Part shown: one piece after another, positions 20,219 to 57,533 of the stretch
How the letters are laid out: each line of letters begins with the position of its first letter
Numbering within the stretch: position 1 is the first letter of the stretch
From: an uncultured Nitrososphaerota archaeon
GTDB taxonomy: Archaea > Thermoproteota > Methanomethylicia > Nezhaarchaeales > B40-G2
DNA: 64,000 nt
Assembly: GCA_964626365.1 (NCBI GenBank)
Contig: CAZVDL010000003.1
Span: 23,783-87,782 of the forward strand
Direction of reading: 5' to 3'
Position numbers and translations under genes: made by a program
The notes under the pieces: generated by a model
What the model was told of the DNA's origin: nothing
The model's input: the letters and a program-made list of their open reading frames with translations, nothing else
The model's database searches: none

Positions 20219-22021
20219 CTACCTACGCTGCTTGACCTTCTCTAAGGCCTCTAAGGCCTCCATTTCATCGGGGGTGAGCTCGCCCCTATACTTTGTGGTT
20301 AATAGCCTAGCGTGCTCGGCTGGTACGTCGACGTAGAGGACGTCGCCCTCCTTGATCTGCCTCCCCACCATGACGTCGCCCCTAATGGATATCGCCACCG
20401 CCAGTCCCTTCGTGGCCTCCTCTATAGGCTTACCTTTATCTTGAATCTGCATTATCACGCCTACGCGCCTACCATCCTCCCTTATCAACGGGTAGCCAGG
20501 CCTTATTCTACCGCTCAACACCTCAACCCCTACGATGGCCGGGTCGCTCCTCCTGAAAACGTAGCCTGGTAGAAGCCTTATGCAGCCGGGCCTTATTAAG
20601 CTAGATAGCTCACGGCGCTTCTCCTCCTCCCTAACCTTGTTAACCCAGTTCTGATACTCCTCAAAAACCCTATAGATCACGTTGCTACTGAAGACAGGGA
20701 TACCCCTCGACTTTAATTCATCCTCCACCTCGGGGGACACCTTTACGTTGAAGGCTAGTATGACGCCTAGGACTTTGTTGGTCTCCTTGACTATGGAGGC
20801 CTCCATGATGTCCCTCTTCGTTATAGGGCCTACGTCGGCCACCCTCACCGGTATATTTAGGCTCCTCAGCTTGTTGACCATGGCCTCGAGGGAGCCTAAG
20901 GTATCAGCTTTCACTACTACCCCCTCTGCCTCGGTGGTGAACCTTATGCCTGCTAGCTCCTCTGAGATCGTCTTCCTAAGCTCGTCCACCTCAGCCTCGC
21001 TAGCGGCGACCATTAATGGCGAGCCCGCTACAACCTCGTCTAACCCAGGCGCAACGACCCTTACGCCAGCCGCGGCAGCCACCTCATCTACGCTCTTAAA
21101 CTTATCCTCTGGGTCCCTCATCTCATCAAGCGGTTTAGGTAATAACAGGGCCCTGACCCTGGTAGTTACGGGCCCCGAGAGGCCGCCTAAGACGACGATG
21201 TCGTTTCGCCTGATAACCCCGTCGTGGATGATGACGTCAGCCACGGTGCCTACGCCGGGCATCTCCCTACACTCAAGTACCACCCCTCTAGCTGGACCCT
21301 TGGAGGCCTTCAACTTACCCATCATATACCTCTGGGTTAAGCCAGCTAGGACTAGTAGTAGATCCGGTATACCCTCACCTGTCAAGGCGCTCGTCGGGAC
21401 AATGGCCAGCGTCCTGGTAAAGTCCCTTACCCTATCGTAACGCTCAGCGTTGAAGCCCTCGTAGGAAAACTGCTCAACAATCCTATACGTCAACTCCTCC
21501 ACTCTACGCTGGACATCGGGACTTTGAGCCTTGAATGACTCGATGAAAGGCGCGTACTCTCTAGGCTTCCACCCAGGGACACGGTCTACCTTGTTAGCGG
21601 CGACGACGAAGGGGACTCTACGCTCCCTGAGTATCCTTAGGCTCTCGTAGGTTATCTCCTCAAAGCCCTCTAAGATGTCTATGACGAGTATGGCTATGTC
21701 GGCTATGGACCCTCCTCTACGCCTAAGGTTTACGAATGCTTCGTGTCCAGGCGTATCTATTACTAGGAAGCCTGGGATCTTCACTTCAGCCTTAAACGAC
21801 CGCATCAATGGGCCGCAGATGCGTTCAAGCGCTGACCACGGCAGAAAGGAAGCGCCTATATGTTGGGTTTACCACCCGGCAGGTAGCACCTGCCGGGACA
21901 TGGCCCCAACTTCCCTGAACATCGTGGCTGTGCCTCTAATTTTATCCAGCAGTAGCGTCTTACCTACGTCGACGTGGCCCAACACGCATACTATGGGTGA
22001 CCTCACGTACTCCTCCTTCAT
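20219..22021 (-). CDS. infB: translation initiation factor aIF5B (IF2 homologue), interrupted by a 30-nt putative BHB mRNA intron
   Basis: Exon 1 (22021..21899) encodes [41 protein letters not shown], carrying the G1 P-loop. After 30 nt that contain an in-frame TAA, the frame resumes with TQHIGASF...ICGPL...[15 protein letters not shown] and the remaining roughly 550 aa of a normal aIF5B. Confidence 0.85.
21869..21898 (-). other. putative bulge-helix-bulge (hBHBh') intron within the infB mRNA
   Basis: Coding-strand sequence: GTTGGG-GCCA-TG^T-CCCGGCAGGT-GCT-ACCTGCCGGG-TGGT-AA^A-CCCAAC. It has a 6-bp exon helix, a 4-bp central helix (GCCA/TGGT), two 3-nt bulges on opposite strands and a 10-bp intron hairpin. 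Cuts after the 2nd bulge nucleotide give an exact in-frame junction. Confidence 0.6.
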
Positions 22022-24143: not shown

Positions 24144-25181
24144 ATGCCGGCGGAGCTTAAACCGTGGAGGAGGAAGGTCGTAATAAGCGACGAGATCCTA
24201 GAGAAGTTACCAAAGGAGGTTGTACAAGCGCTGCGCGATAGCTCACTCAGTGACAAGGAGAAGCTTAGAGCGTTATTACAACATCTTTACGAAGTATTTC
24301 GAAGCTACATAGCTGTTGCGGCGCTTATAGGTGTACCAGCGGCAACTGTATATAATTGGATGATTCGCTTAAACGTTGACATAAGGGAGTATGAGGCATG
24401 TAAGGAGAGGAGGCTTGCTAAAATTAAAAAGGTCGCGCCTAAGGAGATGGCGAAAATGTGGTTCTTTGCCCACTCCGATGGATGTGCTATCGCAATGGGT
24501 CGGCAGGTCTATGTCCAGGTCAGAACCCCCGACCCATGGCTGATACACCTCTTCACAGAGCTTTTTGGGAGGCATGTCGACATCAAGGTTAAGCCCGTTA
24601 TTGACTTTGACGGCGGGTCAAATTGGCATGCATGGTGCTACTTACCTATTGAAGGGTATTCATGGATCCTAAGCGATGAACCACCATCTATCATGACTGG
24701 TGAAGGATTATGGGAGGCATTGGCGGTATTGATTGATACGGAGGGCACAATAACCATACGGCGTGAGAAGAGGGGCAAGGCTACGGAAGTAACCTTAGTG
24801 ATCCCATCTGAGAATTTAAGGTTGCTTCAACGTATCAAGCATGAACTACGCAGCAATGGCATTAAAGCTAAGCTAGGACGTATTAAAGAGACAGGCCAAG
24901 AAACTAAAGTAGGACGGCTAAATAGTGACTGCTGGCGACTCGCCATCTATGCTAAACCATCGCTCATAAGGGTGTTGGAGGAGGTCGCGGATAGGCTTAC
25001 ACTTCCATGGAAGCACATGCTGGCCAAGCTCAGCTTAAGGGTATTGCGTGAGCAGTTAGCGTGGAGTGAGGTTGAGGATTTAGTGAGTGAAGTAAGGCGT
25101 TTTAGACGGAGAACCTTAGATGTCAGCAAGCGTTATATCTTGGAGCAGCTCGCCGAAAACCCTCCACGCCCATCAACCTAA
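24144..25181 (+). CDS. free-standing HTH plus double LAGLIDADG-like domain protein (homing-endonuclease-like)
   Basis: 345 aa; N-terminal HTH AALIGVPAATVYNWMIR, then two LAGLIDADG-like blocks (WFFAHSDGCAI and LAVLIDTEGTITI) spaced as in I-DmoI-type enzymes; lower GC and A/T-ending codons than the flanking genes. Confidence 0.4.
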   Translation: MPAELKPWRRKVVISDEILEKLPKEVVQALRDSSLSDKEKLRALLQHLYEVFRSYIAVAALIGVPAATVYNWMIRLNVDIREYEACKERRLAKIKKVAPKEMAKMWFFAHSDGCAIAMGRQVYVQVRTPDPWLIHLFTELFGRHVDIKVKPVIDFDGGSNWHAWCYLPIEGYSWILSDEPPSIMTGEGLWEALAVLIDTEGTITIRREKRGKATEVTLVIPSENLRLLQRIKHELRSNGIKAKLGRIKETGQETKVGRLNSDCWRLAIYAKPSLIRVLEEVADRLTLPWKHMLAKLSLRVLREQLAWSEVEDLVSEVRRFRRRTLDVSKRYILEQLAENPPRPST

Positions 25182-35082: not shown

Positions 35083-35182
35083 GCCGGGGTGGCCGAGTGG
35101 CCTAAGGCGCCAGCCTGGAGCTACTCGACGGAGAGCTGGTGCCCCTTAACGGGGCGCGTGGGTTCAAATCCCACCCCCGGCG
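35083..35182 (+). tRNA. tRNA-Ser(GGA) with a 13-nt canonical (37/38) intron at 35121-35133
   Basis: acceptor GCCGGGG/CCCCGGC, anticodon stem CCAGC/GCTGG, loop CUGGAG + intron + A, long variable arm GCCCCTTAACGGGGCGC, T-arm GTGGGTTCAAATCCCAC. Confidence 0.85.
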
Positions 35183-35322: not shown

Positions 35323-36316
35323 CTAGGCCTTTCTCCTGCCTTTCCACATGGGTGGGTACGTGCCGGGCTCCATGATCACCCTCTTGGTCTTAGCCACAAG
35401 GCCCTTCTCGGCCTCTAGGATCTCCTTGGCCGACATGAGGGCCGTGGCTAAGGCTACCAACTCCCCCTTCTGGGTCATAAGCGCGACCTCTGAGCCCTTC
35501 CTCACGTCCGAGGTCAGCCTAAGCACTCCTGGAGCTGCTAGGCTAGCGCCGTGGCAGATGGCGTCTACGGCTGAGTCCCTTATTACGATCTTGGGCATGT
35601 CCTCGACTACCTTCTCCATGGGTTGGAGGGCTCTTCTCAGCCAACTTTCATCTCCCTCCTCCCTCCACAGGTCGTAGGCGTCCTTGAGGTCGTGGAGGGT
35701 TACGAGGGTCGAGTCCTCTTTGAACACTCCGCTACGCGTCCGCCTAAGCTCCCTCATATGCGCGCCCACGCCTAGTACCAGGCCTATGTCGTGGCATAGC
35801 TTACGTATGTACGTTCCAGCCTCGCAGCTAACCCTCATCAACACGAGCTTCCCCTGGACCTCGAGGACCTCGAGCTCGTGGATCCTCCTAACCCTTAACC
35901 TACGCTTAACGGAGGCTCTTAAAGGAGGCCTCTGATAGATAGGGCCTACGAACTCGGCACAGACCTCTCTGACCCTGCTCTCAGGCACAGCTGAGTGCAG
36001 CTGCATAACGCATATGTACTCCTTCGACTCCCTCGACATTAACCATAGCAGCTTCCTAGCCTTGTTTAAGGCTATAGGCAGCACGCCGGTTACCTTGGGA
36101 TGACCCCGCCCCTCAGGGCTCTAGGGTCCCTCCATGACCGGCGCGGTCCACGTTCAGTATGCGTTTAACCCACGCGGTCACCTCGTGAGACGTAGGGCCC
36201 GGCGGCTTGTCTAGGTTTATTACGCCCTTCTCCAAGAGCTCCTCGATGCTCCGCTCCTCAGGCCTACAGCCGTAGGGCGAAGGCTCCTCCTCGCTCTTCA
36301 CTAGGTACTCAGCCAA
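35323..36316 (-). CDS. cbf5: tRNA/rRNA pseudouridine synthase Cbf5 (box H/ACA RNP), split by a 19-nt mRNA intron
   Basis: Exon 1 (36316..36116) ends ...[10 protein letters not shown] (TruB catalytic motif) followed by a TGA. Exon 2 (36096..35323) continues [17 protein letters not shown]... in another frame and carries the PUA domain. The intervening tgaggggcggggtcatccc (36097-36115) removes the stop and frameshift. Confidence 0.85.
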
Positions 36317-40648: not shown

Positions 40649-40738
40649 GCGGCCGTCGTCTAGCCTGGTCTAGGACCCTAGCCTCCCGACCAGCAGGGGA
40701 GCCAGCTAGTGGCCCGGGTTCAAATCCCGGCGGCCGCA
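40649..40738 (+). tRNA. tRNA-Gly(CCC) with a 15-nt canonical BHB intron at 40689-40703
   Basis: acceptor GCGGCCG/CGGCCGC, D-stem GTCT/GGAC, anticodon stem CTAGC/GCTAG, loop CUCCCG + intron + A; central helix CTCC/GGAG with bulges CG^A and CC^A; T-arm CCGGGTTCAAATCCCGG. Confidence 0.7.
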
Positions 40739-57097: not shown

Positions 57098-57533
57098 TGT
57101 GATCCCTGCGTATCTGAATATGTAGATACAGAAATAAAACCTTTTCCTCTAGGATAATAATCCTATTGCTTTGACAAATATACAATACTACAAAAAGAGG
57201 GACCTAAGATACCTGTAACGTTTAAGGATCACACACCCGACTTTAAGGCCCTTTGGGCCGGGATTTCCTTAATGATAGTAATGGTAATTGTTGGAGGCCC
57301 GGGCCGGGATTTTCGGGCCCAGCCTCTCGAACCCGGCTCTGCGGCTCCACAGGCCGCGGTGTTACCCCTACACCACCCGGGCCGTTGATTGGGAGGTAGT
57401 GCTCGGATATAAGCTTCGTTGCGACGCTGGACTTACCTTCTTCAAGTACCTCTACAGTATTCCCGGTTCATAAAGGAGATATAAGGGGGGAGGGGGCAGG
57501 ACGTGGGGGCCTAATGCCAATGACCTAGACTGA

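Follow-up and report, generated by a model that had tools for sequence, protein, structure and literature searches.

On the minus strand of the window (the whole 64,000-nt stretch of DNA that was analysed), cbf5 lies within a conserved gene cluster, L34e-cmk-L14e-cbf5-S13-S4-S11. Its product, Cbf5, is the catalytic subunit of H/ACA pseudouridine synthase. In the list of open reading frames the gene appears as two minus-strand ORFs in different frames, as had been described, one of 67 aa (36316..36113, TTG start) and one of 253 aa (36084..35323), and the frame of the longer ORF is open further upstream of 36084. The shorter ORF was confirmed to read ...AGHGGTLEP and then to terminate at a TGA, which is the UGA at 36115-36113 of the transcript and lies inside the putative intron. 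On the opposite strand, ∼140 nt downstream of cbf5, there is a tRNA-Ser gene. The coordinates of these and other features are collected in Table 1.

A preliminary description of this DNA proposed that the two ORFs are fused into one Cbf5 by removal of a 19-nt string, tgaggggcggggtcatccc, which is indeed located at 36115..36097. Removing it does fuse the frames, but the fusion is not canonical, since the resulting protein reads GTLEP instead of GTLDP. The sequence GTLEP had been taken for the TruB catalytic motif, whereas that motif is GTLDP, its Asp is a strictly conserved catalytic residue of TruB and Cbf5, and the D85N substitution inactivates Cbf5 of P. furiosus (PMC3443816). Excision of 36115-36097 was rejected because it converts the catalytic Asp into Glu. 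In an enumeration of every deletion of 13-28 nt around the site that restores the frame, GTLDPKV was obtained only from 36120..36102 or from 36119..36101, two deletions that leave an identical mRNA. The boundaries first proposed were thus 5 nt off. With the corrected boundaries the insert interrupts the catalytic Asp codon after its first letter (G|AU), and the junction of the predicted spliced mRNA is ACCCUAG|AUCCCAAG.

Table 1. Features of the cbf5 region, related elements in the window, and loci with homologous inserts.
Feature	Position	Strand	Basis or detail
cbf5 exon 1 (predicted)	36121..36316	(-)	TTG start 36316; 3' end G36121 is letter 1 of the Asp codon
cbf5 intron (putative), 19 nt, AGCCCUGAGGGGCGGGGUC	36102..36120	(-)	sole GTLDPKV excision (plus 1-nt equivalent); ends are the BHB cut positions
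cbf5 exon 2 (predicted)	35323..36101	(-)	starts AU (finishes GAU, Asp), then CCC AAG GUA...; stop codon 35325-35323
hBHBh' motif of cbf5, 34 nt	36097..36130	(-)	named-structure energy and pairing in homologues
Helix h, cbf5 BHB	GGGA 36130-36127 / UCCC 36100-36097	(-)	4 Watson-Crick pairs
Central helix H, cbf5 BHB	CCCU 36126-36123 / GGGG 36107-36104	(-)	3 Watson-Crick pairs and a G-U pair
5' bulge, cbf5 BHB	AGA 36122-36120	(-)	predicted cut AG|A
3' bulge, cbf5 BHB	UCA 36103-36101	(-)	predicted cut UC|A
Helix h', cbf5 BHB	GCCC 36119-36116 / GGGC 36111-36108	(-)	4 Watson-Crick pairs; loop UGAG 36115-36112
aIF5B putative BHB intron, 30 nt	21898..21869	(-)	BHB scan; exon 1 ∼22021-21899, exon 2 21868-20219
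tRNA-Ser(GGA), 13-nt anticodon-loop intron	35083-35182	(+)	ARAGORN intron mode
tRNA-Gly(CCC), 15-nt anticodon-loop intron	40649-40738	(+)	ARAGORN intron mode
cbf5 intron loci	L007-L010, L013, L014, L025, L046, L048, L049, L058		junction ∼190 nt into match
cbf5 intron loci, continued	L059, L064, L069, L074, L075, L083, L084, L086, L091		junction ∼190 nt into match

The protein predicted from the spliced message has 324 aa and matches NF003280 with 483 bits (cut-off 242) and TIGR00425 with 474 bits, each in one continuous match. It contains the Pfam domains DKCLD, TruB_N, TruB_C_2 and PUA. Exon 1 codes for the DKCLD domain and the residues up to ...AGHGGTL, as seen from the ORF list, the Pfam domain match and the enumeration of junctions, and exon 2 codes for the remainder of TruB_N together with TruB_C_2 and PUA. 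Compared with the Pyrococcus Cbf5 structures 2aus and 3lwo, the spliced protein aligns at E = 3e-119 and is gapless across the junction. Judged by these matches, the host gene, when spliced as predicted, is a complete, full-length Cbf5. Translation of the unspliced mRNA would give only the 67-aa fragment, in which the catalytic Asp is missing. The insert itself contains no ORF of its own, and its 19 nt fall inside the 16-44 bp range of published cbf5 introns, among which those of Thermosphaera aggregans, Acidianus brierleyi and Metallosphaera are also 19 bp long (PMC2738675).

Canonical hBHBh' motifs have two 3-nt bulges with a 4-bp helix between them and outer helices of at least 2 Watson-Crick pairs each (PMC7714728). 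The cbf5 motif is a strict hBHBh' by this definition, not a relaxed form as had been supposed, and it was overlooked at first because the wrong boundaries were used. One cut in each bulge, after its second nucleotide, would take out exactly the 19-nt insert and join CUAG to AUCCC. Because the BHB is not the structure returned by free minimum free energy (MFE) folding, its energy was computed as a named structure, giving -15.7 kcal/mol compared with -16.4 for the MFE of the core. In a 101-nt context, the gap to the MFE is 1.3 kcal/mol at 37 C, where the BHB accounts for ∼2% of the ensemble, and shrinks to 0.04 kcal/mol at 85 C. Folding had been suggested as a check for this region: the strict hBHBh' is present as a named structure, but in the unconstrained MFE of 36160-36060 the helix has slipped in register and holds a bulge of 1 nt, a fold 0.7-1.3 kcal/mol better than the BHB. 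The local fold at 36160-36060 showed no unusual stability (z = -1.5), and at gathering thresholds Rfam recovered only tRNAs, with no family over the cbf5 element.

Scanning both strands of the whole window for strict hBHBh' motifs yielded 32 matches, compared with 22 +/- 5.5 in dinucleotide shuffles. Since strict BHBs occur in the window at close to chance frequency, the motif by itself is weak evidence, and the scan was rejected as stand-alone evidence. The other matches, at 57310-57325 (-), 24502-24525 (-) and 30 further places, make a total that is close to the shuffle expectation; coincidence of the 32 matches with ORF breaks was looked at for cbf5 and aIF5B only. At a specific position and length the chance rate of a strict BHB is ∼4e-6, and the sole BHB near the cbf5 site has its cuts exactly at the place that brings back the reading frame and the Asp codon.

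The same site was then surveyed in the best 80 matching species-representative genomes, among which the source genome itself is not represented (best match, 85%). An insert of 18-45 nt was found at this site of cbf5 in 19 of the 80 genomes, the other 61 being without one, and metagenome contigs added further examples, including the metagenomic locus L091, which was found with an OCR-derived fragment of S. solfataricus Cbf5. Among relatives with 61-85% protein identity the inserts differ, but their position does not vary by a single nucleotide; two such relatives from metagenomes, at 80% and 85% identity, have an 18-nt insert that keeps the frame and includes a TAG, and a 23-nt insert, respectively. 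The effect of the homologous inserts on the frame varies (0, +1, +2), and in all of them the central helix has 4 bp and both bulges have 3 nt. Insert length is a multiple of 3 at 20 of the 27 homologous loci, and every such insert contains an in-frame stop. In public gene calls the intron-bearing cbf5 is split or cut short, for instance into separate DKCLD and TruB_N-PUA genes, and the same 253-aa fragment has been called as a separate gene on 4 contigs from different assemblies (NCBI, ENA, JGI).

Covariation was evaluated in a set of 21 distinct homologous sequences. Over this set, 90.5% of cells were paired, compared with 25-64% when the partners were slid. The central helix was 97.6% paired, with CCCU/GGGG in nearly all sequences, and all pairs of the outer helix formed in 14 of the 21, the others having a relaxed one. 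Two-sided compensatory changes were detected at all 4 of the inner-helix pairs, as in GCC..GGC versus GGC..GCC. The covariation score was 0.188, compared with 0.089 in shuffles, none of 500 of which reached 0.188, and slid controls did not exceed 0.09. Both borders fell between bulge residues 2 and 3 in 21 of 21 sequences. The exons carry a corresponding signature, with the Thr-Leu of the motif written as ACC-CU(A/U) in 26 of 27 intron-bearing cbf5 genes, compared with 3 of 32 intron-less genes encoding G-T-L, and on these counts the synonymous sites of the exon are fixed only in intron-bearing cbf5 genes. The exon half of the motif is built from codons (GGG-ACC-CUA-G / AU-CCC), so that protein and RNA structure constrain the same bases.

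We consider a 19-nt BHB intron (36120..36102) in the cbf5 pre-mRNA, removed by the tRNA-splicing enzyme, to be the most probable reading of the locus, with a probability of roughly 0.9. According to this model, cbf5 would be transcribed as a single pre-mRNA in which the end of exon 1 (ACC-CUA-G) and the GGGG at the intron's 3' end pair up as the central helix of 4 bp, flanked by the two 3-nt bulges, the exon-exon helix GGGA/UCCC and the intron hairpin GCCC-UGAG-GGGC. The archaeal tRNA-splicing endonuclease would cleave at AG|A and UC|A, between nucleotides 2 and 3 of each bulge, and an RNA ligase, probably of the RtcB type, would join CUAG to AUCCC, recreating the GAU codon of the catalytic Asp and allowing translation of the 324-aa Cbf5. 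Cleavage and ligation in vivo, and the identity of the enzymes, are what we infer from the gene anatomy, the product, the conservation, the covariation and the synonymous constraint, all of which are read directly from the DNA.

The enzymes of this model should be available to the cell. Two of the four tRNA genes in the window, tRNA-Ser(GGA) and tRNA-Gly(CCC), contain introns, and therefore a splicing endonuclease and a ligase must exist; ARAGORN with default settings missed one of these two genes and mis-called the other, and intron mode resolved both. The window itself codes for neither of these enzymes, and RtcB signature motifs were found in none of 75 long ORFs in it. In the literature, mRNA splicing is tied to a broad-specificity, hetero-tetrameric (alpha-beta)2 splicing endonuclease. 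Since the cbf5 motif is strict, such a broad-specificity enzyme may be dispensable here. Archaeal tRNA introns with a canonical hBHBh' have the same geometry as the cbf5 motif, and the enzymes are presumably common to both, although tRNA introns are surrounded by a tRNA body and the cbf5 motif lies in coding sequence without one.

The ORFs might instead be joined with no RNA splicing, by programmed +1 ribosomal frameshifting or translational bypassing, as would befit two adjacent ORFs in different frames, and the first cbf5 cases were classed as frameshifts by other authors, according to Yokobori 2009 (PMC2738675). However, the open frames overlap by 5 nt only (AGCCC), and a product made by shifting there would lack the catalytic Asp and carry six extra residues in the active-site loop. 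Because 20 of the 27 homologous inserts are multiples of 3 and each of these has an in-frame stop, neither readthrough nor frameshifting can be the common mechanism, and the conserved, covarying BHB and the constraint on exon synonymous sites would also be left unexplained; we regard frameshifting as very improbable. An equally small probability is assigned to a true split gene, in which each ORF would be translated on its own and the two products, of 67 aa and 253 aa, would assemble into the enzyme. While public assemblies do annotate two genes, DKCLD and TruB_N-PUA, the strictly required Asp, whose D85N substitution gives an inactive enzyme (PMC3443816), is in neither ORF, the first ending in GTLEP and the second starting at a GTG inside GVLP. 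Moreover, break point and RNA structure are conserved while insert length varies, as is expected of an excised element and not of a gene boundary.

Least probable of all, in our estimate, is a pseudogene lesion or an error of assembly or sequencing. The contig is metagenome-assembled, and a G-rich stretch of 19 nt could in principle be an indel error, but the identical split on four contigs from NCBI, ENA and JGI assemblies makes an assembly artefact unlikely, and an artefact would not place different inserts at the exact same nucleotide in relatives of 61-85% protein identity. Inactivation of the gene is at odds with two exons that are otherwise intact and jointly score as a full-length equivalog, and with the position of cbf5 inside its conserved cluster.

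A BHB intron in the cbf5 pre-mRNA of Crenarchaeota, namely Aeropyrum pernix and Sulfolobus spp., was reportedly described by Watanabe in 2002 and Yoshinari in 2006. It is the classic, nearly sole case of protein-coding mRNA splicing in Archaea. The published cbf5 introns separate the first letter of the catalytic Asp codon from the other two, with both borders between bulge residues 2 and 3 (Yokobori 2009, PMC2738675). The insertion point in the window, which it had been proposed to compare with published ones, is the same. The insert resembles the crenarchaeal introns in its host gene, insertion point, bulge cuts, length range and lack of an ORF, as judged by the published rules. Since junction, bulge cuts, full-length product and covariation agree, the assignment to the crenarchaeal, tRNA-splicing-endonuclease kind of cbf5 pre-mRNA intron made in the preliminary description is supported. 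There are also differences. The crenarchaeal hosts belong to Desulfurococcales and Sulfolobales, whereas the present host is Nezhaarchaeales/Methanomethylicia-like by its nearest genomes; most published cbf5 motifs are unconventional or relaxed (PMC2738675), in contrast to the strict hBHBh' found here; and the introns of Sulfolobus and Aeropyrum are experimentally validated, whereas the present one is predicted. In Haloferax volcanii, too, the archaeal splicing endonuclease has a substrate that is neither tRNA nor rRNA, the HVO_1309 mRNA with its BHB intron (PMC7714728). That intron is in the 5' UTR of a euryarchaeal gene, where no codon is interrupted, and the cbf5 insert falls in the codon for the catalytic residue of an essential enzyme.

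The preliminary description also alluded to an intron in infB, and this remark was borne out by a conserved, putative BHB intron in aIF5B at 21898-21869, which also counts in favour of splicing in cbf5. In aIF5B the unconstrained MFE of the core is a perfect hBHBh' (-33.3 kcal/mol) whose outer helix has 6 bp and whose inner stem has 10 bp. Splicing is predicted to create the mRNA junction GGGGCCAUG|ACCCAACA and the protein sequence EVGAM|TQHIGA, within a product of 590 aa that matches NF003078 with 853 bits in one stretch, as expected for a full-length IF-2/aIF5B. Relatives down to 65% identity have all been called as N-terminally truncated proteins. In three of these loci, L088, L089 and L090 (65-82% identity), inserts of 31, 29 and 33 nt, respectively, are present at the aIF5B junction, and their inner stems are wholly different and still complementary. 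The searchable literature holds no report of a BHB intron in aIF5B, and the aIF5B intron is a more novel lead than the intron in cbf5.

The range of organisms carrying the cbf5 insert was examined by placing the sequences on a Cbf5 tree, which is a rough, single-gene neighbor-joining (NJ) tree with the taxon labels given by the submitters of the metagenome-assembled genomes (MAGs). Among species representatives, the nearest Cbf5 sequences are from Ca. Methanomethylicia (85% identity) and Ca. Nezhaarchaeales (78% identity), and the nearest aIF5B relatives are labelled Nezhaarchaeales, a group that NCBI taxonomy puts in a phylum of its own. In the tree, the window's Cbf5 falls inside a clade of 10 sequences, all 10 with the intron, while none in the sister Methanomethylicales/Methanosuratincola clade has it. 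The intron is present in 8 of 11 Bathyarchaeia, labels of Thermoprotei and Desulfurococcales are mixed, and the intron is absent from all euryarchaeal and Asgard sequences. Intron-bearing MAGs are labelled Nezhaarchaeales, Methanomethylicia, Bathyarchaeia, Thermofilaceae, Thermoprotei and Desulfurococcales, and one of the Bathyarchaeia carriers is the Ca. Bathyarchaeum chromosome CP070820.1. The intron is missing from Methanomethylicales, from Pyrodictium-like lineages and from part of the Bathyarchaeia, which would imply that it was lost repeatedly. One contig labelled 'Candidatus Krumholzibacteriaceae bacterium' (L042, DATKLC010000122.1) encodes an archaeal Cbf5 whose place in the NJ tree is among intron-less Bathyarchaeia, and is probably mis-binned.

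In the searchable literature the cbf5 intron is reported only for Desulfurococcales and Sulfolobales, and no paper was found that links Nezhaarchaeota with introns; reviews up to 2023 confine the cbf5 intron to a few Crenarchaeota that are related to one another. The host of the present insert is outside the two orders in which the intron was described, orders that mark its range so far and not a mechanistic requirement. Judged from its sequence features, this is a known kind of intron with a wider taxonomic range than published. A broader proposal, whose chances we put at about even, is that the cbf5 intron does not stem from an ancestor of Desulfurococcales and Sulfolobales and is much older or more mobile, given its occurrence at the same nucleotide in Nezhaarchaeales-like genomes, Bathyarchaeia and several Thermoprotei, and that endonuclease-dependent mRNA splicing also operates in the essential aIF5B of the window's clade.

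These observations bear on the annotation of the genomes concerned, as the cbf5 intron explains a systematic error by which cbf5 of these MAGs is called as two genes, and analyses of marker genes or of completeness can be distorted by split calls of this kind. With junction and motif alike in Nezhaarchaeales-like and Bathyarchaeia genomes, a different age and a different history of losses are inferred for the cbf5 intron. If the proposal is true, aIF5B would be the first case of a conserved coding-region BHB intron outside cbf5. As a putative second spliced gene, it also suggests that the tRNA endonuclease splices mRNAs of Archaea more often than has been detected.
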